NCBI GenBank assembly: GCA_964636085.1
Contig: CAZWPQ010000048.1
Location: 1-11,976, forward strand
DNA length: 11,976 nucleotides
From: an uncultured Nitrososphaerota archaeon
Lineage (GTDB): Archaea > Asgardarchaeota > Njordarchaeia > Njordarchaeales > Panguiarchaeaceae
Direction: 5' to 3'
Position numbers and translations under genes: made by a program. Shown one piece after another: positions 268 through 11,976 of the stretch (position 1 is the stretch's first letter; each line of letters begins with the position of its first letter). A model generated the notes under the pieces. It saw only the letters and a program-made list of their open reading frames with translations. It did no database searches and was not told where the DNA came from.

Positions 268-499
268 ATTTTAAACCCTTAAATTTGTTCTATTTATGGT
301 ACAATTTGTTGGTGGAATTGTACTATGGGTGGTACAATTATTAATGTCGATAATGTGCTTAAAAGGGTTTTGGTTGAGTCTCAGGAGCTGATATATCCGG
401 CTGATCTTATTGAGCGCTCGGTGGATGTTGATTTTGGCTTTGCGTTTGGGCCAATAGGCAAGGTTTATGCTGTGCATGGGCTAAGGAGGGTTGGTAAAA
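268..499 (+). repeat. Left arm of a 232-bp inverted repeat (partner 1744-1975)
   Basis: Base-by-base comparison: position x pairs with 2243-x. The only mismatches found are 284/1959 and 286/1957. The track ORFs 271..477(-) and 1766..1972(+) are identical except for one residue for this reason. Confidence 0.97.
296..339. promoter_or_regulatory. Operator-like array GTACAATT-N9-AATTGTAC-N8-GTACAATT (left copy)
   Basis: GTACAATT 299-306, AATTGTAC 316-323 and GTACAATT 332-339. The first pair extends to ATGGTACAATT/AATTGTACTAT (10/11). The array spans the GGTGG SD (311-315) and the ATG (325). Confidence 0.5.
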
Positions 500-504
500 A
501 TTAA
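325..504 (+). pseudogene. Truncated duplicate of the 5' end of the AAA_14/DUF4143 ATPase gene (59 aa)
   Basis: ATG 325 to TAA 502-504 encodes MGGTIINVDNVLKRVLVESQELIYPADLIERSVDVDFGFAFGPIGKVYAVHGLRRVGKN*. This equals residues 1-58 of 557..1918 and ends inside Walker A (GLRRVGK|T). The SD and upstream TATA-like sequence are retained. Confidence 0.9.
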
Positions 505-556
505 TTGTCACTATCAGGATTTATTCTAAGAACTAATGTGAAGATTTTGATGCGAT

Positions 557-1918
557 TCACGGATTCGGTATTATATCGACCATTCCTAGAAACCATTTCC
601 AGGCAGGAATTATCTCGATGGTCTTGCCGTTCACGGTTTCTTTATCCTCATCTTTGTATGTGAGGATTATTCCTTTATTAAGTCCGAACTCTCTGCATGC
701 CCTTACTAGTGAGTTTATCTCTCTTCTTTTAACTTCCTTATCTTCTAGTGACCAAGCTACCTGTATTAGTGCTATTGGTCTTAGGTTCTTAATTACGGCA
801 AAATCTACTTCTCCCCTATTTCTATTCCTCCAGTAGTGAATTCTTATCGTCGGATCATTATGCGTCTTCCTTTTTAGTTCGATGTAGACTGCGTTTTCTA
901 ATAGACGCCCAAGATCGTAGCTTATTGCCGTCGAGGTTATGAATATATTATCCGCGATATATATCTTCCTAGGGTACATTAGCTGATCCTTTATTGTTCT
1001 TGAGAATATAGGGACTTGATCCGCGAAGAAAACTTTCTCCACATATCTAATATACTTTCCTATGGTCTCCTTACCGACCCTATGTCCAATGCTTTTAAGC
1101 ACATCATAAGCCTTTGAGATGCTGAACTCTTTGGAGTTTATCAGTAGTTTTATTAGATCCTCAAGCGCTGGTTTGTTGTCCACATCAAACTGTTCACATA
1201 TGTCTCGATTAACTATTGTTTTGAAGTATTCATGTGCTAGGATTATTTTCCTATGCTTTCCCTTAACTAGGACGATCTCTGGCATCCCCCCAAACTCAAT
1301 ATATTCTCGAAAGTAATGTAGGAGTTCAGACAATCTTTCATCGCTAAGTTCTATATGCTTTAGATCAATTCTAGTGCCTCGAAACGTTAGGAACTCTGCA
1401 AAGGTTAATGGAAATATTCGTAGTGGACAACTCCGCCCCCTAAGTTCTCGTGGTATGTCATCCGCTGAGAGCTTACTAGTGGAGCCAGAAATAAACAAGG
1501 TAGCTCTCCTCGAATCATTAATCCTCACGGCCCATGCACTCCACCTTGGTATTTTGTGGATTTCATCAATAAATAAGAATAATTTACCCTTGACTCCAAA
1601 TGTTTCTCGAATTACTGGTATCAACCTTGTTAGAACATTAGTTCTACGCGGTATTCTCTCATCATCCATGCTTATATAATGTGTTCTTAGAGGCTCTATG
1701 CCATGCTTAATTACCTGCCTTCTCAATTGATACAAGAAATAAGTTTTACCAACCCTCCTTAGCCCATGCACAGCATAAACCTTGCCTATTGGCCCAAACG
1801 CAAAGCCAAAATCAACATCCACCGAGCGCTCAATAAGATCAGCCGGATATATCAGCTCCTGAGACTCAACCAAAACCCTTTTAAGCACATTATCGACATT
1901 AATAATTGTACCACCCAT
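557..1918 (-). CDS. AAA+ superfamily ATPase, AAA_14 + DUF4143 (COG1373-type), with C-terminal PD-(D/E)xK-like fold
   Basis: 453 aa. Walker A GLRRVGKT and Walker B LFLFIDEIH are present, as are the family motifs ISGSTS, GRS..IFPLTFAEF, YIEFGGMPEI, RKIYIADN, LLENAVYIEL and YWR..EVDFAV..LIQV. A GGTGG SD (1928-1932, minus strand) lies 9 nt upstream of the ATG. Confidence 0.93.
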   Translation of the reverse strand: MGGTIINVDNVLKRVLVESQELIYPADLIERSVDVDFGFAFGPIGKVYAVHGLRRVGKTYFLYQLRRQVIKHGIEPLRTHYISMDDERIPRRTNVLTRLIPVIRETFGVKGKLFLFIDEIHKIPRWSAWAVRINDSRRATLFISGSTSKLSADDIPRELRGRSCPLRIFPLTFAEFLTFRGTRIDLKHIELSDERLSELLHYFREYIEFGGMPEIVLVKGKHRKIILAHEYFKTIVNRDICEQFDVDNKPALEDLIKLLINSKEFSISKAYDVLKSIGHRVGKETIGKYIRYVEKVFFADQVPIFSRTIKDQLMYPRKIYIADNIFITSTAISYDLGRLLENAVYIELKRKTHNDPTIRIHYWRNRNRGEVDFAVIKNLRPIALIQVAWSLEDKEVKRREINSLVRACREFGLNKGIILTYKDEDKETVNGKTIEIIPAWKWFLGMVDIIPNP

Positions 1919-1975
1919 AGTACAATTCCACCAACAAATTGTACCATAAATAGAACGATTTTAAGGGTTTAAAAT
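1744..1975 (-). repeat. Right arm of the 232-bp inverted repeat (native promoter and first 58 codons of the ATPase gene)
   Basis: Reverse complement of 268-499 with two mismatches. Confidence 0.97.
1904..1947. promoter_or_regulatory. Operator-like GTACAATT triple array (right copy) over the ATPase SD and start codon
   Basis: AATTGTAC 1904-1911, GTACAATT 1920-1927 and AATTGTAC 1937-1944, mirroring 296-339. Confidence 0.5.
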
Positions 1976-2032
1976 TTTTTTTATTATTTTTTGGCTTATA
2001 ATTCTGTAGTGCCTAAATGTTTGTCTAGGTGA
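1959..2032. promoter_or_regulatory. Divergent promoter region for the ATPase (-) and C25 protease (+) genes
   Basis: Palindromic TTTAAA 1968-1973 with an A-tract upstream on the minus strand (BRE-like). TTATAA 1996-2001 lies about 30-35 nt before the protease start. SD AGGTGA at 2027-2032. Confidence 0.45.
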
Positions 2033-5000
2033 ATGTGTTGTATAGATATGTCAGGTCTTTGGTGCTTTTAGGCGTCCTACTATTGGCCTCTATTTCTTCT
2101 ATATTATGGATGAAGGCTTCATCGATGGAGAATACTGTGGAGCAGGGCGATGTAGCAAAGAATAATAAGTCATATGTAAAATCGGGGGGTCTAAGCGATA
2201 AAAATCGTTGGAACGACATATTTGGAGAGGTGTCAAATGTGGAGGATGCCGGATCGGGGGGTATACCTGATATTTTCTTTAAGCCGAGATATCTACAGGA
2301 GCGTCCATATTATAGAGTGCCGCCTAGACAGGGAAGCCTTGATGTTGATTATAAATATACTTTAAGCGGTAACTCTGGAGAGATTATTATCCATATTAGG
2401 TTCAAGGATCCGAGGATGACGCCCATAAAGATTAATGACACAACATACTATATTATATCTCTCGAAGGATGTGGTCTCTCTGGAGGATATGGCGAACCAT
2501 TACTACCCATATGCACAATAGGTGTAGCATTACCCACACATGCAGAGCTGGTCGGGGTCCTCGCTAGTGCTTATGAAACTAGGTTTGTTGGGAAATATGT
2601 ACCTGTACCAAAGCAGAGGCCAGTGCCAATAGGTATGGATCAGAGCAAAAATGAATTCCTAATAAACGAGGAGATTTATGGGCTACAAACATTGTATCCG
2701 GAGAATATTCTCAACGACTATCATATTGGCTATATTAGGGGGATCCCCATAGTTAGAATTTCGCTGAATCCAATCCAGATTATTCCGGCGTCAGGCGGGG
2801 TATATCACAACGCCGAGGTCAAAGTAGTGGTGCGTTTTAGTTTACCAAGCAACTATAAATATGGAACATATGATCGGAAGTCTAAAAGGTTTGTCAAGGA
2901 GCTACTTGGCTCGAGTGTTATAGGCCTATCAGAAGCACTGGAATACTCAGAAGCCGTGTTTTCCAATTCCCTTAGGGGGACCTATGATTGCGTTATCATA
3001 ACTCATGATGATTATTATGAGCTCGCAGAGCTATACAAGACGTGGAAGGAGGAGAAGGGGCTAAGCATCTATATTGCCAACCTATCCTCAATCCTTAACA
3101 ACTACACGGGGGTTGATGCTTCAGAAAAAATAAGGAACTTCATAATCCAGGCATACAACGACTGGGGAATAGAATATGTCCTAATAATAGGCGATGCCGA
3201 TGATATACCGCCCAGAGAGGTCTATGATCCATATCCATATTGGGGAGCTCCAGACATTGATAATGGGACAATACCAACAGACATGTATTATGCATGCCTA
3301 GATGGAAACTGGAACGCGGATGGCGATACGATATGGGGCGAAGTGGAGGATGATGTGGACTGGTACCCAGAACTCGTCGTAGGGAGAATTCCTGGCGATT
3401 CGACAGAGGAGATAGGTAGAGCCATAAAGAGACTAATCCTATATGAGTTTGCACCTGCTGGGGGTGACTGGAGGAGAAAAGCCCTACTACTAGGGGCACA
3501 AGCTTTTGATTATGATGATGGAGCTCAATTCTTCAACAGAATGATCCAGAATTATATTCAGTATACTGACTATGAGCCGATCAAACTATATGACACTGTG
3601 GACTCGCCAAACGATAACCTGACAACAGAAAATACTATCAATTATATTGTGAATGGAGTCGCAATAGTCAATTTCTGGGATCATGGAAGCCCGGATACAT
3701 GGTGGCAGAATGTCCACTCGACTGGAGGAGATCCATTATTATCATCGTATGATGTATATAGCAATATACTCATAAGAGAAGTCATGTATCCATTTATATT
3801 CGCAATGGCATGCGCCACAGTACCATTTGACCATGAATCCATGGATAATAACATGGGAGAGTCTTGGTTTAGGACTGAGATTGCTGGTGCGATAGCATAT
3901 TTTGGCTCTGCAAGAATAGCATTCGCTGGGGATGATGGTATGGATGGTTTAAATGATAGATGGTGGTTCGCCATCAAGAGGTACTGGATAGACAATATGA
4001 CGCAGCCGATCGGATGGCTTATCGCTAGGGCGAAAATAAATCTAACACAGAGCTATGATCCTGATGTTTACGGGAATGAGGTCTCAAGAAAGACATTGCT
4101 TGAGACTGCTTTCCTTGGGGATCCAGAATTGGGGATGCTGATTGCTGATAACCTCACCGTAAACATAAAGAATGAGACAATATCAGTAGACCCAGGCCAA
4201 ACATTGACTATTATGGGTAATGTAACTAGGACCCTTACTGGCGTAGGCATAGCGGCAACAATAAAAATCTGGATTCTTACTAGAGACATTGATATTATCT
4301 CGTCATGTGTAGTGACCAGCTTTAATAATGGTTCATTTACAGCGCAGCTAAATATACCAACAGGTACTTCTCCAGGCGAATATATACTTGCGGTATTTGC
4401 AAGAGCTGGGGATGAAATAGGTCGTGTCGGAAAATTGATGAGGATTGGAACATTAAAGGTCAGCGTAACCAGTGAAGAGTTCGTACAACTATATCACTAT
4501 GTAAACATTTCTGGAAGAGTACTAACTAAGACTGGAACCCCAGTAGAAAATGCCGAGGTAAACATAACTATTATCGATGTTTACGATAACATTGTTAATG
4601 AGGGAACAGTCATCACAAATATAACTGGATTCTTCACCTACTCATGGAATGTAACCACGGCAAGTGAATTTAGGATACATGTCACGGCATGTGACCCAAC
4701 GAGAGCCCATTGGGGTGCCAACGAAACATCATTTATTGGTGCAAAAGGAATAATTAAAATAGCTGTCATAGACTCGTGGGGCTCCGATGCACCAATATCG
4801 GTAACGACGTTTTTGGGGCTTCAAAAGAATTGGTATGAATATGGTGATTATTTATTGGAATTCGACAGGGAATCACTCAATAAGGATGGAATAACATTAT
4901 CCGATATTTTCAATAGCTCGGCTGATGTTTTATTCATATCGGATGCTTGGAACAGTTATTATGGTTGGGAATTTACTGATGAAGAAATCGACGCTATTAA

Positions 5001-8000
5001 GGGATATGTATCGGCGGGGCATGGTATAATAGGTACGGGGGGCACACTATCCTCTGGAGCGTCAAACAATATGAAGCTTGCAGAAATGTTTGGATATGCC
5101 AGTGAACCCGCGGGAAGCTGGGGCTCAGATTTCGAGCCCATATTCAACATTCTAAACTCATCACACCCAATATTTGCGGGGGTCGCATCACCATATGAGG
5201 CTGGAATGAATTATACTGTAACGGGTCTGGAGCTTGATTCTAACTCTCCAGCAACAATAATTGCAAAATCCGTTGATGAGCTAGCACAGATCTCAGAACA
5301 TATGTATGGTAGGGGAATGACCATATACTTCACAAGTATGCCGGAGGTAAACTATCCTAGTATTGGATATACCCCAACAATCGAGGATTATATTGTATTA
5401 TACAATGCGATAGTTTATGCATATGAGTACTCAACCCCAGCACCCTACGAGTTTGTTCCCGAAGAGGTAGAGGCCCCGATACTCATTGATGTAGGAGAAA
5501 CAGCCTTGATTAATGCTACTATAGTAAATGTTGGCTATGAGAACGCAACGGGTGTCACCGTTAGATTAATTGTCGATGGAGAAGAAAAAAGCTCCCAATT
5601 AGTCGATATTCCAGGTATGGGATCAGTCAATATGACATTTAGCTATTCCCCCACACAATATAGGATGTCAAATGTGACTATTAGCGTGGATACACTCCCA
5701 GGAGAAGCCTATGTTGGCAACAACAATAAATCCGCACCAATGATAGTTGCCAAGAAGATATATGAGAATGACTTCGAAACGGATCCAACAGCAGAGTGGT
5801 CGATAGTTGGTTCTAACGCATCCTGGGAGTGGGGCGAGCCGATGTCTGGCCCAGGAAGTGCATATTCTGGCCAATATTGCTGGGCTACAAACCTGACCAG
5901 TACATATAATAACTATGAGAATAGTATGCTTGTAAGCCCAGAAATAGAAATACCAGACAATGCATCTAATGTATATGTGCTATTTTATCATTGGTTCGAA
6001 ATAGAGAACTGGTATGATTCTGCGAGACTAATGATTTATGATGGGACAAAATGGGATCTTGTTGAGCCGATAATAGGCATTGAATACTCAGATACCTACT
6101 ATGGTAGGGGCTGGACTGGAGAGAGTAAGGAATGGATCATTGCAGTGTTTGATATTGCTGAGTATCGTGGAAAAAAAGTGAAGCTAGGCTTTAACATAAC
6201 ATCGGACGTTATAGTATCCTATGACGGATGGTATATTGATGATGTTGTTGTGGCGTATATATCATATGAGCATCAATTGCGCATAAGCGATGTATATATG
6301 GATAAGCTATTCATCTATGGGGAGGATAGAGATATTACTGTCCTAGTAGCAAATGAGGGTACTAATAATGAGACTGGAATTGATGTTAAGCTATACATAA
6401 ACGAGACATTATGGGACTCACAAACAATAGATATAAACAGTATGGAAAAACAGAATGTCACATTCACAGTAAACGTAAACAAATCACTGATCGGAATACT
6501 CAATGTTAGAATAACAGTAGAACAAGTACTCGGAGAATATGTCACCGAGGATAACGAGGTGGAGATGGTGGCCTATGGAGGGACATATTTATATGAGAAT
6601 GACTTTGAAACGGATCCAACTGCGGAGTGGTCAATCACTGGTACTAACCCATCTTGGGAGTGGGGCAAGCCGACATCTGGCCCAGGGAGTGCACATTCTG
6701 GCCAGTACTGTTGGGCAACAAATCTAGATGGCAACTACAACTATAGTGAAGAAAGTAGACTCGTAAAAATATTCAGGGGGCTCAGTTATTTCCACTCAAT
6801 TCCAAAGATACTTGTAGTATTCTACCACTGGTATTCTATCGAACTAGGTTGGGATTTTGCGTGGTTCGAAATAAGTCATAAAGGTACAGCATGGATCAAA
6901 TTGGCCCCGATGGAGGGTCCAGAATATTATTATATTGGGTGGAGTGGATCGAGTAATGATTGGGTAAAATCAATGTTCGATATTACTAACTATGTGAAAG
7001 AGGACGAGGATGTATACATAGCATTCCACTTAAGCTCGGACTATATAATTGCATATGATGGTTGGTACATTGATGATGTTAAAATATTCATAACGGCGAT
7101 TCTATATCACGATGTCGGCGTGGCTGGAGCTAAGGTTCCAGAATCTGTTGAGTATTGCGAGGACATTGCGATAAATGCAACAATAGTTAATAATGGCCTA
7201 GAAAACGAAACAAACATAGTTGTTGACCTCCTAATAAACGGCACTTTAGTTGACTCGGTAACAATCCCCGAGCTGGAGAGCCATGATAAAGCGATAGTTT
7301 CATTCAATTGGACAGTGTACCTCGTGGGACCACTAAATGTAACAATTAATATAACCCCCATATCAGGCGACGAGATACTCCGCAATAATAAATATTCCGA
7401 GATAATGTTCAGCATTGCATTAATAATCGAGTATGACTTTGAAGAAACACCGGGCCCCGAATGGTTTATTATTGGTTCTAATTCATCTTGGGAGTGGGGC
7501 GAGCCGACATCTGGCCCAGGGAGTGCACATTCTGGCCAGTACTGCTGGGCAACAAATCTAGATGGGAACTACAACTATACTGAAGACAGCTATCTAATAC
7601 TTAATCTCTCAGCATTCCCTATAACATTGGGTGCTGAAGAATTACTGTATGCCGCAGTATACATATGGTATGACATAGAGAGCTGGTATGATGGAGCACG
7701 TGTCGAGGCCAGTTCCGATCTTTCGAGATGGACAATACTAAACCCGGTAACTGGTCCAGAATATGACAATACAGAATATGGTGATGCTTGGAGTGGACAA
7801 ATATCTTCATGGACACAAGTTCTATTCGATTTAACAGGCATGGGTACTACTGGTTATCTTGGCTTTCATATGATGTCGGATACATCGGTTAGTTATTATG
7901 GTATATATATTGACGACTTAAGTATATTGGCTTGTGAGTATCCAAGAGCAATAATTATATCCCCTAGGAATGACACATATACTCTTGACACAATAACAAT

Positions 8001-9492
8001 ATATTGGTTAGCTATAGGCCGCAAATACGCCGAACACTTCGAAATATATGTTGATGGCAATCCAGTAAATACGTCTATACCCAGCACAGAAGAAAGTTGC
8101 ACACTAACTGGGCTTCCAGAGGGGCTACACATAATCGAGGTTCGCATGATAGATCTTGCTGGAAGAACCTCAATAACCACTACAAGGATATATGTCGATA
8201 TTACGCCTCCGACGGTAACGGTTAATAGTCCAACAGATGGTAGCTATATCAATAAGAGTAGTGTAACTGTGGCATGGTCTGGGTCTGACAACTATGATAT
8301 TGACCACTATGAGATTTATGTCGATGGTAGCCCAGTAAATATCAGCATCCCGGCCGATGTTACCAGCTGTGTGCTTGATCTTAATGAGGGTGATCACACC
8401 ATCGTTGTCAAGGCTGTTGATTTGGCTGGTAATGAGGCGTCGGACTCTGTGACTATTCATATAGACTTGACGCCTCCAATGGTAACAATTGATGAGCCAT
8501 GCGATGGATATGTTACTAATGAGACCGAAATCCTAGTGAGGTGGTCAAGTACAGACAATTATGATATTGATCATTATGAGCTCTATGTAGATGATAGTCC
8601 CTTAAATACTAGTATTCCAGTCAATGTAGAAAGTTATGTTATAATGTTAACTGAAGGCCATCATACGATCATTGTTAGGGCTGTTGATAAAGCGGGAAAT
8701 GTGGGGGAGGCTGGCGTATCGGTAAGGATAATGATGGGTAGTGTATCTCCCCAGATGAGTATCCAGCCTCTTGGGTTCGTGGTTGATTATCCACAGTACT
8801 TCAATACTACAAATGTTAGTATAATGATGAATGTTACGGCATATACCGAGTATACAGTAATGATATATGTTAATCAGACACTATGGAGCTCAACATACTT
8901 TATGGAGAACATAACGAATGAAGTATTCCAAATAAATCTTGTGAGTGTTCTAGGTAATGCGCCTGAGGGAGCATATAATGTATCGATTGTTGTTGTTGAT
9001 AGATTCGGAAATAGTATCTCGAGATCATTGATAGTTTATGTAGACCTATCTGAACCCACAGTGCAGGTAGAGGCCCCGAGCGAGGGGACAATAATCGAAG
9101 AGGATCATGTTGAAGTGAGGGGCATAGTAACTGATGATCTCAGCGGGATATATAAGGTATGGATAAGGATCGATGGTGGCGAATGGGAAGAGGTCACTAT
9201 TTCGCCTGATGGCTCATTTAGCTATACATTTGAGGATCTAGAGGATGGAAACCACGTAATAATCATAAGAGCTATCGATAAGGCAGGAAATATTGCCACT
9301 GAAAGCATAAGCTTTACTGTAAGGCTCCCCGCAAAGCCATGGTCTTCAAAGATATTGATATGGGCATTACTGCTTTCGACATTAGTGATTGGATTGGTCA
9401 TAGGTGTTGTTGTACTTAAAAAGAAGAAGGCTAAGGGGGTCTTACCAATAGAAACGGAGGACACTTCATTAATAGACTATGCTGAACTATAG
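2029..9492 (+). CDS. Giant membrane-anchored gingipain-like cysteine protease (peptidase C25, clan CD) with propeptide, Ig-like, GATase-like, 3x(CARDB + jelly-roll) and C-terminal Ig/FN3-like repeats
   Basis: 2487 aa. Signal peptide (RYVRSLVLLGVLLLASISSILWMKA), then a C25 propeptide-like region (GEPLLP..VALP, YP..GYIRG..LNPIQ). The C25 domain spans ~2983-4131: YDCVIIT, IRNFI, EYVLIIGD..IP, TDMYYACLDG, PELVVGRIP, catalytic NFWDHGS (His552, nt 3682), AMAC (Cys595, nt 3811), GAIAYFGSAR and FLGDP. TM helix 9352-9417 followed by KKKKAK. The true start may be GTG 2035 or TTG 2038, since AGGTGA overlaps the GTG at 2029. Confidence 0.93.
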   Translation: MNVLYRYVRSLVLLGVLLLASISSILWMKASSMENTVEQGDVAKNNKSYVKSGGLSDKNRWNDIFGEVSNVEDAGSGGIPDIFFKPRYLQERPYYRVPPRQGSLDVDYKYTLSGNSGEIIIHIRFKDPRMTPIKINDTTYYIISLEGCGLSGGYGEPLLPICTIGVALPTHAELVGVLASAYETRFVGKYVPVPKQRPVPIGMDQSKNEFLINEEIYGLQTLYPENILNDYHIGYIRGIPIVRISLNPIQIIPASGGVYHNAEVKVVVRFSLPSNYKYGTYDRKSKRFVKELLGSSVIGLSEALEYSEAVFSNSLRGTYDCVIITHDDYYELAELYKTWKEEKGLSIYIANLSSILNNYTGVDASEKIRNFIIQAYNDWGIEYVLIIGDADDIPPREVYDPYPYWGAPDIDNGTIPTDMYYACLDGNWNADGDTIWGEVEDDVDWYPELVVGRIPGDSTEEIGRAIKRLILYEFAPAGGDWRRKALLLGAQAFDYDDGAQFFNRMIQNYIQYTDYEPIKLYDTVDSPNDNLTTENTINYIVNGVAIVNFWDHGSPDTWWQNVHSTGGDPLLSSYDVYSNILIREVMYPFIFAMACATVPFDHESMDNNMGESWFRTEIAGAIAYFGSARIAFAGDDGMDGLNDRWWFAIKRYWIDNMTQPIGWLIARAKINLTQSYDPDVYGNEVSRKTLLETAFLGDPELGMLIADNLTVNIKNETISVDPGQTLTIMGNVTRTLTGVGIAATIKIWILTRDIDIISSCVVTSFNNGSFTAQLNIPTGTSPGEYILAVFARAGDEIGRVGKLMRIGTLKVSVTSEEFVQLYHYVNISGRVLTKTGTPVENAEVNITIIDVYDNIVNEGTVITNITGFFTYSWNVTTASEFRIHVTACDPTRAHWGANETSFIGAKGIIKIAVIDSWGSDAPISVTTFLGLQKNWYEYGDYLLEFDRESLNKDGITLSDIFNSSADVLFISDAWNSYYGWEFTDEEIDAIKGYVSAGHGIIGTGGTLSSGASNNMKLAEMFGYASEPAGSWGSDFEPIFNILNSSHPIFAGVASPYEAGMNYTVTGLELDSNSPATIIAKSVDELAQISEHMYGRGMTIYFTSMPEVNYPSIGYTPTIEDYIVLYNAIVYAYEYSTPAPYEFVPEEVEAPILIDVGETALINATIVNVGYENATGVTVRLIVDGEEKSSQLVDIPGMGSVNMTFSYSPTQYRMSNVTISVDTLPGEAYVGNNNKSAPMIVAKKIYENDFETDPTAEWSIVGSNASWEWGEPMSGPGSAYSGQYCWATNLTSTYNNYENSMLVSPEIEIPDNASNVYVLFYHWFEIENWYDSARLMIYDGTKWDLVEPIIGIEYSDTYYGRGWTGESKEWIIAVFDIAEYRGKKVKLGFNITSDVIVSYDGWYIDDVVVAYISYEHQLRISDVYMDKLFIYGEDRDITVLVANEGTNNETGIDVKLYINETLWDSQTIDINSMEKQNVTFTVNVNKSLIGILNVRITVEQVLGEYVTEDNEVEMVAYGGTYLYENDFETDPTAEWSITGTNPSWEWGKPTSGPGSAHSGQYCWATNLDGNYNYSEESRLVKIFRGLSYFHSIPKILVVFYHWYSIELGWDFAWFEISHKGTAWIKLAPMEGPEYYYIGWSGSSNDWVKSMFDITNYVKEDEDVYIAFHLSSDYIIAYDGWYIDDVKIFITAILYHDVGVAGAKVPESVEYCEDIAINATIVNNGLENETNIVVDLLINGTLVDSVTIPELESHDKAIVSFNWTVYLVGPLNVTINITPISGDEILRNNKYSEIMFSIALIIEYDFEETPGPEWFIIGSNSSWEWGEPTSGPGSAHSGQYCWATNLDGNYNYTEDSYLILNLSAFPITLGAEELLYAAVYIWYDIESWYDGARVEASSDLSRWTILNPVTGPEYDNTEYGDAWSGQISSWTQVLFDLTGMGTTGYLGFHMMSDTSVSYYGIYIDDLSILACEYPRAIIISPRNDTYTLDTITIYWLAIGRKYAEHFEIYVDGNPVNTSIPSTEESCTLTGLPEGLHIIEVRMIDLAGRTSITTTRIYVDITPPTVTVNSPTDGSYINKSSVTVAWSGSDNYDIDHYEIYVDGSPVNISIPADVTSCVLDLNEGDHTIVVKAVDLAGNEASDSVTIHIDLTPPMVTIDEPCDGYVTNETEILVRWSSTDNYDIDHYELYVDDSPLNTSIPVNVESYVIMLTEGHHTIIVRAVDKAGNVGEAGVSVRIMMGSVSPQMSIQPLGFVVDYPQYFNTTNVSIMMNVTAYTEYTVMIYVNQTLWSSTYFMENITNEVFQINLVSVLGNAPEGAYNVSIVVVDRFGNSISRSLIVYVDLSEPTVQVEAPSEGTIIEEDHVEVRGIVTDDLSGIYKVWIRIDGGEWEEVTISPDGSFSYTFEDLEDGNHVIIIRAIDKAGNIATESISFTVRLPAKPWSSKILIWALLLSTLVIGLVIGVVVLKKKKAKGVLPIETEDTSLIDYAEL
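5446..7930 (+). repeat. Three tandem ~277-aa (831-834 bp) intragenic modules: CARDB-like Ig domain + jelly-roll (cleaved-adhesin/MAM/immune-inhibitor-A-like) domain
   Basis: Each module has I.a.v.N.G..N.T...V.L.i.....S (CARDB-like) followed by DFE..P..EW.I.G.N.SWEWG.P.SGPGSA.SGQYCWATNL...SD......G.YIDD. Measured offsets between copies are 831 and 834 bp. Confidence 0.88.
7942..8730 (+). repeat. Three tandem ~89-aa Ig/FN3-like domains (a further diverged copy lies at ~9045-9325)
   Basis: Repeating P.V.I.SP.DG......V.W...DNYDIDHYEIYVDG.PVN.SIP........L.EG.H.I.V.AVD.AGN; offsets 270 and 267 bp. Confidence 0.85.
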
Positions 9493-9815: not shown

Positions 9816-11306
9816 TTATGGGAGTCTTGTTTTTCCTTCTTTTGCTATGATTTTTAGTGCTGGTTTCTCAAGTAGATATATTCTTGCTCCTCCCTCTATG
9901 AGGTATTTTGCTTTGTCTATTGCCTCTTTTGTGAATCCCATGTAGGCGATTAGTATTCCCTTTGATACTTTCACTCCAGTATTCTCGGCGATCGCTATTT
10001 TATGTGCCAGTTGAACTACTTTTTCTTGGTCTGCTAGTCCTACCGTTATTTCGTAAATATCTGCGTTGTTTCTATCAATATAGGCTATCGCGTCTATTTC
10101 TCCGAGGGCGCCCTCATACCTAATCACTTTCCGATATGGACCGACACTAATTTTTCTTCCTAGGACATCCTCGATGATTACTGATTTATCTATACTGAAT
10201 AGTGCCTCTCTTATTAGTGCCTCAAAACCATATGACAATATTTTTAGTCTTTGCTCCGATACCTTCCTGTATTCACCAAATTCATGCATCTGCAACCATG
10301 CTTCAAATAGCTTGTCCGTTATTAGGTAATGTGTTTCTTTGCGTGACTTTATGACTTTCCTTATAATGCCCTTCCTCACCAATATTTCGAGTATTGAGTA
10401 CGCACTAGGGATCCTACGGACAATCTCGCTGGCCCGACTAAGCTTTCTACTTAAATGCGCAAGTATTTCTTGTTCTGTTGGCGAAAATTTCTCAAATAAT
10501 AACTTGAAATAAGCGTTGAGCGTTCCGCCGAGCAATTCATCGTGTAGAGTATTCTCAATATCCTCAGGAGACGCCTCTGTCCTCACAGCTGATGTTAGTA
10601 TAACTATGTAGAGCGGTACTCCAAATGTCGCCTCTGCAAGCCGAATAATCGATTCCTCACTCAAGATTTTATCTTTAGCCTTAAGTTGGGATTTAATGAG
10701 CCCTATACTAGCGCAGAATGATAGTGGTTCCAGAAATATTACTTGTTTCATTTCCTTGAAGAGGGGAGCTGAGTAGTCTCTAGTGAGCGTATATATCGAT
10801 TCCAATGATGTATCAGCAGTTATTATCGGCACGGCATATGTGTCTAGAAGACCCTTAATGTGCTCAGCAACGGCCACTGCACCACCATATCCCCTATATG
10901 GATTCCTCATGCCGAATCTGGCCAGGAGAGTAGATATTTCGTCAAATATTATGAATCTAATCTCATTTTCCGAGGAGAATCTAAACACGAGATCAAGAGC
11001 TTTCTTAGAATCCACACGCCTAGGGATTAGACTTAGAAAACTTTTCCGTGCTTCATTGAACTGTGGAATATTGAGTGCTATCTCCATCAAGTTCTCTGCA
11101 AAAATATCCAGCAAATCTCGGCCACTATATATCCTTAGACAATTAACGTAGACACCCGGGACACCATCCTCCATAAATGCTTTATGAAAAACCTTTAGGA
11201 GCGCGGTCTTACCGTATCCCCGCAGACTCAAAATCATGACGCTAGCCCCCGCATCAACAGCCTTTCTCAGTAAAGATAGCTCCTCATGCCGATCTACAAA
11301 TATCAT
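9816..11306 (-). CDS. Archaeal ATPase (COG1672/ATPase_2-like P-loop NTPase) with winged HTH and C-terminal PD-(D/E)xK-like domain
   Basis: Start revised to ATG 11306 (MIFVDRHEEL, the typical 'F.dRe.El' N-terminus), with SD AGGTGA at 11311-11316; 496 aa. Walker A SLRGYGKT, YVNC strand, Walker B IIFDEIS, LEPLS, TFGVPLY (GxP), wHTH-like SPTEQEIL..LVRKGII..YLITDKLFEAW, and C-terminal FEALIRE..GEIDAIA..IYEIT. Confidence 0.88.
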   Translation of the reverse strand: MIFVDRHEELSLLRKAVDAGASVMILSLRGYGKTALLKVFHKAFMEDGVPGVYVNCLRIYSGRDLLDIFAENLMEIALNIPQFNEARKSFLSLIPRRVDSKKALDLVFRFSSENEIRFIIFDEISTLLARFGMRNPYRGYGGAVAVAEHIKGLLDTYAVPIITADTSLESIYTLTRDYSAPLFKEMKQVIFLEPLSFCASIGLIKSQLKAKDKILSEESIIRLAEATFGVPLYIVILTSAVRTEASPEDIENTLHDELLGGTLNAYFKLLFEKFSPTEQEILAHLSRKLSRASEIVRRIPSAYSILEILVRKGIIRKVIKSRKETHYLITDKLFEAWLQMHEFGEYRKVSEQRLKILSYGFEALIREALFSIDKSVIIEDVLGRKISVGPYRKVIRYEGALGEIDAIAYIDRNNADIYEITVGLADQEKVVQLAHKIAIAENTGVKVSKGILIAYMGFTKEAIDKAKYLIEGGARIYLLEKPALKIIAKEGKTRLP

Positions 11307-11329
11307 GCAATCACCTATAAATATTAATA

Positions 11330-11360
11330 CTAAAAAATTTTTTACAATAAAATTTTTTAG
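11330..11360. promoter_or_regulatory. 12-7-12 inverted repeat in the promoter region of the second ATPase
   Basis: CTAAAAAATTTT-TTACAAT-AAAATTTTTTAG has perfect 12-bp arms and lies 24-54 nt upstream of ATG 11306. It is low complexity. Confidence 0.35.
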
Positions 11361-11667
11361 GAAAAAGAGCAACATGAATACAAATAATCCAAGTTATGTC
11401 AACAATAGGCCCCATCAGTAATGGAGATATAGCCATATAGATTTCTAAAGATCTACAGGACATAAAACAACACAATACATAGCACCGACAAAAATAGCCT
11501 AGTCTATTTCCAGTTCTGCCGAATCTATGCCTCCTCACACCACACCGCATCCTCGCTATACGATCCACATGACGCATCGTATGATTTCGCCAAAATAACC
11601 ACTACGTGGTCGTATCCATTTTTTATTTGAAATAAAATATATGAGTACAGGCGTTGGTGTGATATGG

Positions 11668-11976
11668 ATGAGCATTAAGCTCATAAAGAAACTGTCATCC
11701 TCACCGAGATGGAATGTATGGCTTGGGGCGATGGACGGGCAGAAGGTGGTTGTTAAGGCCCCAGCGTTCACAATAACGCCGAGGGAAATGGAATACTACG
11801 CCAAGAGGGCGGCGATATGGTGGGAGCTGAAGAACAACAAGAATATAGCGGAGCTCGTGGCGTATGATAGGAAGAATGCGGCGTTCATAATAAAGTACTA
11901 CCCAAAAACGCTGAGGCAGATACTGGAGCGGAGGGGGAGGCTACCGGTGGGGCTTGCGAGGGGGATAATCTTGGGT
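11668..11976 (+). CDS. N-lobe of a Hanks-type Ser/Thr protein kinase-like protein (partial, runs off the window; degenerate motifs)
   Basis: Open frame from ATG 11641 to the window end. ATG 11668 has GGTGTGA 5 nt upstream and is preferred. MSIKLIKKLSSSPRWNVWLGAMDGQKVVVKAPAFTITPREMEYYAKRAAIWWELKNNKNIAELVAYDRKNAAFIIKYYPKTLRQILERRGRLPVGLARGIILG: KVVVK (VAIK), NKNIAEL (HPNIVKL) and FIIKYYPKTLRQIL (LVMEY..GSL) occur in the correct order and spacing for subdomains I-VIa. Confidence 0.78.
   Translation, partial: MSIKLIKKLSSSPRWNVWLGAMDGQKVVVKAPAFTITPREMEYYAKRAAIWWELKNNKNIAELVAYDRKNAAFIIKYYPKTLRQILERRGRLPVGLARGIILG

Follow-up and report, generated by a model that had tools for sequence, protein, structure and literature searches.

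The window analysed here, a stretch of 11 976 nucleotides, is the entire contig C48 in a metagenome-assembled genome from a vent (G000), which is 83% complete. In its left part, an ATPase gene is enclosed by an inverted copy of its own beginning, with debris of an insertion sequence (IS) and of an antitoxin gene on one side and the divergent gene of a surface protein on the other:

1-165, + strand: C-terminal tail of a Mutator/IS256-like transposase (its frame can be aligned to the tail of the ORF in two IS copies of the sister genome G004, L005 and L007)
144-171, no strand: terminal inverted repeat at the right end of the IS (with a match at either end of the 1.6-kb L007 element)
172-266, - strand: internal fragment of an antitoxin gene of AbrB/VapB type (approximately codons 45-75), truncated by the IS on one side and by the left arm on the other
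268-499, + strand: left arm, an inverted copy of the promoter, the operators and codons 1-58 (repeat comparison)
269-276, + strand: predicted TATA-like box, left copy, TTTTAAAC
285-304, + strand: operator dyad 1, left copy (consensus TTGTWCTA-N4-TAGWACAA, one mismatch), consensus T kept at 286
318-337, + strand: operator dyad 2, left copy (operator consensus), over the start codon, 33 bp past dyad 1
325-504, + strand: stub ORF of 59 aa that ends in the Walker A motif (ORF list; called as a gene in public assemblies)
500-1743, no strand: inter-arm segment, potentially invertible (repeat comparison and in-silico flip; flipped order in the unphased contig L109)
557-1918, - strand: AAA_14 + DUF4143 ATPase, 453 aa, COG1373-type (Pfam), PADLOC family PDC-S01 (2.4e-87)
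1744-1975, - strand: right arm, with the promoter and 5' end of the gene in their native place (repeat comparison)
1906-1925, - strand: operator dyad 2, native copy (operator consensus)
1939-1958, - strand: operator dyad 1, native copy (orthologue leaders and operator consensus), non-consensus C at 1957
1967-1974, - strand: predicted native TATA-like box, with an A-tract (BRE-like) ahead of it
2029-9492, + strand: peptidase C25 surface protein, 2487 aa, divergent neighbour (Pfam)

The peptidase C25 protein is gingipain-like, bears three MAM/CARDB repeats, Ig-like domains and a membrane anchor at its C-terminus, and has a 53%-identical paralogue on contig C33. The rest of the window holds a second archaeal ATPase with a weak ATPase_2 match (9816-11375, - strand) and the start of a kinase-like ORF without a Pfam match (11641-11976, + strand).

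The two arms are reverse complements of each other in 230 of the 232 positions (in-register comparison), the only mismatches being 284/1959 and 286/1957, with an identical core of 213 bp (287-499) and, beyond this core, a fringe of 5/7 matches at 500-506. Each arm takes in 57 bp of upstream sequence and ATPase codons 1-58, and the left arm stops 57 bp short of the ATPase stop codon at 557. This geometry, reported in the first-pass annotation of the sequence, was recomputed and confirmed, and the accompanying claim that a flip leaves the protein unchanged is borne out by in-silico inversion of 500-1743, which yields an identical 453-aa protein starting at 325. The chance expectation of such an arm pair is ~1e-113, and within the genome, the arm sequence is unique to this locus.

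The repeat structure is real. All four repeat junctions are present in Logan contigs of two vent runs, X1 and X2, the graph of which has the expected form, a single 213-bp node into which the arms collapse plus four junction contigs, all free of differences; a contig from a third run, X3, which holds a small share of the words and was used solely for this one exact junction contig, crosses 499/500 without a difference; and both inner junctions are found in two MEGAHIT contigs, ERZ27247980:k141_88224 (L059) and ERZ27248328:k141_113395 (L109). The inverted structure is thus present in at least three runs, that is, it persists; one of the junction-bearing runs may be the source sample. An assembly artefact or amplification chimera would fit the location of the arm near a contig end, the lack of doubled depth in the collapsed arm (50 vs 39-65 in X2; Logan depth proved unusable as a measure of copy number) and the phasing of left-arm bases 317-380 by no independent assembly, but the same junctions were recovered from three runs by three assemblers and the left arm has two bases of its own. 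The chance of an artefact appears minimal, and the suggested check for a chimera, at junctions 267/268 and 499/500, came out against one because the junctions recur in independent assemblies.

Which orientation predominates is a separate matter. Contig L059 fits the order of the window, and contig L109, found via a look-up of the stub protein, agrees over 4174 bp with the flipped state but for one difference. The two states share identical k-mer sets up to k = 214, so that k141 contigs cannot show orientation. Both contigs end 119 nt into the far arm, at an assembler step boundary, and in a toy model, reads from one orientation produced either contig type equally often. Being unphased, L109 was rejected as proof of inversion, and so was L059, on the same grounds, as proof of a fixed orientation. 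That the source assembly, built with 55-bp overlaps (k55), runs through both arms suggests that one main state had the support of read pairs.

The left flank consists of remnants. The supposed GT4-like gene on this side is not one: its sequence is the tail of a Mutator/IS256-like transposase, as judged from the alignment with the IS of G004, in which the L007 ORF matches PF00872 (E 1.4e-7, above the cut-off). Positions 1-171 are found again at the ends of contigs C65 and C50, and in public contigs, many different flanks join at 131-175. The vapB fragment has a DNA identity of 80% to the intact vapB in G003:C175 and 77% to that in G000:C14, and in both cases a PIN toxin gene follows. Because both left neighbours are debris, the left arm does not stand behind an alternative operon. 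The possibility that the arm replaced ~230 bp of the vapB 5' half and promoter was considered and rejected: the sizes roughly fit, but 500-556 has no similarity to vapB upstream regions (200 of 300 and 162 of 300 shuffles score equally high).

The relatives lack this arrangement. Among ~9 orthologue lineages, 55-83% identical and with at least 500 bp of downstream DNA, the inverted 5' copy is found in none, and a downstream operator copy is absent from every Njordarchaeal orthologue. Absence of the left arm from relatives was one half of what the first-pass annotation named as evidence against a switch. Even orthologues at 76-83% identity lie in different gene neighbourhoods. In the sister genome G004, the ATPase gene is deleted down to its promoter and 22 codons at a CTACT microhomology (L011:1485-1612), and at the site of this deletion, the gene is complete in a 94%-identical relative (L062:4940-6560), so that partial remnants of the ATPase gene evidently arise by ordinary rearrangement. 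A search for a relative with the same neighbours as the window locus, which would fix the breakpoints, yielded neither such a relative nor an un-rearranged ancestral allele, and for the ancestral neighbour of the peptidase C25 protein, there is no alignable DNA in the relatives. Approximately 2 kb upstream of an orthologue, L017 (1751-2079) and L062 (2751-3079) have a 330-bp non-coding stretch that is 81% self-complementary.

The enclosed gene encodes an ATPase with the Pfam domains AAA_14 and DUF4143, in this order, and its close homologues carry the labels Njordarchaeota/Njordarchaeia. The predicted model (pLDDT 93.9) has a central helix-helix-helix-hairpin unit, and its nearest folds are Orc1/Cdc6, SSO1545 and PAB2304. 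In the C-terminal nuclease motif, E-V-D-F is kept and Q-V-A stands in place of E-x-K; this motif ends in Q-x-[C/S/A], not E-x-K, in 113 of the 114 DUF4143 matches among homologues P0001-P0120, that is, the PD-(D/E)xK lysine is missing in nearly all close homologues. PDC-S01 is an abundant, experimentally untested family of defence candidates, and most PDC systems have not been validated (PMC12988326); the ATPase gene is an anti-virus candidate.

The leaders of the orthologues, when aligned, contain a TATA-like box (a T-run/AA box at this position) followed by the 20-bp dyad TTGTWCTA-N4-TAGWACAA and usually also by a second dyad, 33 bp further on and over the start codon. In the whole genome, sites with at most one mismatch to this operator are confined to the arms, and among 251 genomes of the phylum, the strict tandem-operator pattern is found only at the window locus and in one orthologue. 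The predicted tandem operator is conserved and private to the ATPase clade of the window gene. The predicted operators are most likely bound by the winged-helix domain of the ATPase itself, resulting in autorepression, a role that is made likely by the similarity of the fold to Orc1/Cdc6 and SSO1545-type ATPases; a literature search for DUF4143 autoregulation returned nothing. ATPase paralogues on contigs C2, C30, C3 and C26 of the same genome carry leader palindromes of their own, with that on C30 clearly unlike the one in the window, which fits private autoregulation. At the RNA level, the tandem dyads (285-337) are predicted to form a single long hairpin (~-22 kcal/mol) that covers the start codon, with a GGTGG motif near the loop. 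A sigma-70 promoter scan of the window was set aside as not applicable to an archaeon.

The proposal that inversion swaps the promoter context of the ATPase holds in part. The arms contain the TATA-like box and both operators, which stay with the gene, so that a flip alters only the BRE region (the six bases upstream of the left TATA-like box are AATTTA vs AAAAAA at the native copy), two bases and the upstream read-through, from the IS. For the ATPase, the effect of a flip would be a change of expression level at most. Because the consensus operator base lost in the native copy is still present in the left one, a flipped state with lower expression is possible, and this direction would be our guess.

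The window locus is not the only one of its kind in this genome. Five same-contig exact inverted repeats of at least 100 bp were found, all 1.2-5.6 kb apart and with unrelated arm sequences, which argues for a general rather than a site-specific process; the four pairs besides that of the window (C19, C23, C37 and C40) have perfect cores of 101-169 bp. In three pairs, the core is perfect while the dispersed copies of the same family are mostly 67-87% alike, and by reasoning, bulge collapse at k55 would not produce cores as short as 101-102 bp. These comparisons point to general exchange between nearby facing repeats in this lineage, by conversion, crossover or template switching. The arms on C19 and C23 are members of multi-copy MITE-like families, and the C40 pair (4068-4222/5324-5478) is of a promoter type, its 148-bp perfect core taking in the first codons of the enclosed 281-aa gene; adjoining it is a 474-aa gene that looks TnpB-like (putative). 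A MITE-like element with perfect 75-bp terminal repeats is seen in the sister species (L095:1072-1146/1841-1915, in G004:C8). When the sister genomes were searched for flipped counterparts of the pairs on C19, C23 and C40, scattered matches were all that came up. Contigs C38/C55 and C73/C74 of G000 are 100% duplicated over 8.6 kb and 4.9 kb, respectively, which is assembly redundancy.

An enzyme dedicated to inversion is not apparent. As the first-pass annotation had it, there is no recombinase gene in the window (ORFs and Pfam), and its view that inversion would require general recombination is judged right; no recombinase is linked to the locus, and RadA is present in the genome. Elsewhere, the genome encodes one tyrosine recombinase (C1), two resolvase-domain genes and two IS110 transposases, all unlinked, though they might act in trans; an SSV/pTN3-type integrase was sought in the 83%-complete genome, with no PF16795 match. 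In Thermococcus kodakarensis, homologous recombination was seen only with stretches of at least 500 bp (PMC5495485), so that RadA alone may be inefficient on a 213-bp core; template switching has been described for much shorter arms (PMC8604942). A non-autonomous transposon with long terminal repeats was also considered and rejected, given that the outer ends of the arms show no direct repeat beyond a T-run that could be a target-site duplication and that there are no copies at other sites.

The most likely explanation, to which we assign a probability of about 0.63, is that the locus is a recent, strain-level scar of inverted duplication that can flip only incidentally. The ATPase transcription unit would have had its first 232 bp copied, inverted, to a place just beyond the stop codon of the same gene, destroying the 5' half of the neighbouring vapB beside the IS end. 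The copy could have originated by inversion with duplication, in line with the inverted duplicate at the segment ends and the truncation of one copy, or by template switching of replication at short AT-rich microhomology, candidates for which are the 5/7 match at 500-506 and an ATTT at 268 that the vapB paralogue on C14 also has, both AT-rich and weak. The likeness of the arms would result from youth and local gene conversion, and RadA-type recombination across the 213-bp core would now and then flip the inner 1.24 kb as a by-product, which exchange between nearby facing repeats makes plausible. The absence of the arm in orthologues, the debris on the left, the variable neighbourhoods and the lack of a linked recombinase all count in favour of a scar. 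Its persistence in at least three runs and the weakness and shortness of the junction microhomologies count against it, as does the match of L109 to the flipped state over 4174 bp, given that flipping may be frequent. That the arm starts exactly at the TATA-like box and keeps the consensus operator base could mean that the copy has been under selection or that it is older.

A working, recombinase-free inverton, in which flipping is frequent enough to keep both states in the population and the ATPase is expressed at different levels, one state combining a strong BRE with a weakened operator and the other a weak BRE with an intact operator, is unlikely, though far from negligible. It would account for the opposite orders in two public assemblies, for the local homogenisation of facing repeats here and in G004, and for the location of both differences within the outermost 19 bp (p ~0.6-1.3% if independent), as with repeated exchange in the core. 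The k-mers shared by the states and the toy model weaken the first of these points, and the two mismatches, 2 bp apart, may be one event; furthermore, the k55 assembly through both arms suggests one dominant state, a weak BRE region is also found in some orthologues, and the arrangement is not conserved. Somewhat less likely again is the broader proposition that Njordarchaeal Asgard archaea recombine nearby facing repeats so readily that a chance self-duplication became a recombinase-free two-state expression switch for the ATPase, one of at least five such segments in this genome.

The copy might, alternatively, be retained as a damper, either through a convergent promoter driving antisense RNA into the 3' end of the gene or through a second operator pair that loops or titrates the regulator. 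It does contain a full unit of TATA-like box and two operators facing the gene, and harbours, with the other arm, the only close operator matches of the genome, but it is absent in all relatives and its 58 codons of coding sequence would be superfluous for this role, so that we consider a damper improbable. More improbable still is a self-mobilising cassette, in which the ATPase would duplicate, invert or move its gene by acting at its own operators: the varying neighbourhoods of close orthologues would be explained, but the Njordarchaeal orthologues have no downstream operator, the arms do not end at the dyads, there is no sign of a target duplication and the nuclease motif lacks its lysine in nearly all close homologues.

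If a one-off scar, the locus is a modest example of a common ATPase family gaining, losing and duplicating its promoter; if the five pairs indeed flip, they would represent rare inversion-based variation in Asgard archaea, without a dedicated enzyme. The conserved private operator offers a direct handle on what PDC-S01 proteins bind.

Among known systems, the closest to the preferred scar appears to be duplication associated with inversion, in which an inverted copy of part of a gene, reportedly formed at the ends of a small inverted segment (Furuta and colleagues, PNAS, 2011), leaves a truncated copy behind. The window has the same inverted gene-part copy and truncated copy, but the order of events is not fixed because no un-rearranged allele was found. 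This process is described in Helicobacter pylori, as relayed in a citing paper (PMC4671568). In Mycoplasma bovirhinis, the aadE*-sat4-aphA-3 genes undergo inversions via promoter-overlapping repeats of 197 and 155 bp, with little phenotype in the case of the 197-bp repeats (PMC8614714); there, as in the window, long repeats take in the promoter and inversion alters promoter details only, but inversion was demonstrated by PCR and two serine invertases are adjacent, whereas the window repeat includes coding sequence and has no linked invertase. Invertons have barely been surveyed in archaea, with 12 putative archaeal cases (PhaVa, bioRxiv 10.1101/2023.03.11.532203). Like invertons and phase-variable promoters, the window has a segment between inverted repeats that overlap a gene, but each of its arms is a 232-bp piece from the start of the gene itself, the protein is unchanged and the opposite orders come from unphased contigs. 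Int-pTN3 of Thermococcus nautili catalyses low-specificity inversions between unrelated pairs of identical stretches of at least 104 bp (PMC5495485), which resembles the situation here in that a vent archaeon and unrelated identical pairs are involved; the differences are that the PF16795 integrase was not found in this genome and that its segments are 1-6 kb long. Finally, the enclosed gene is a member of a very common defence-candidate family, PDC-S01/COG1373 (PMC12988326, PMC3424549), for which the literature search turned up no description of self-bracketing or of operators.
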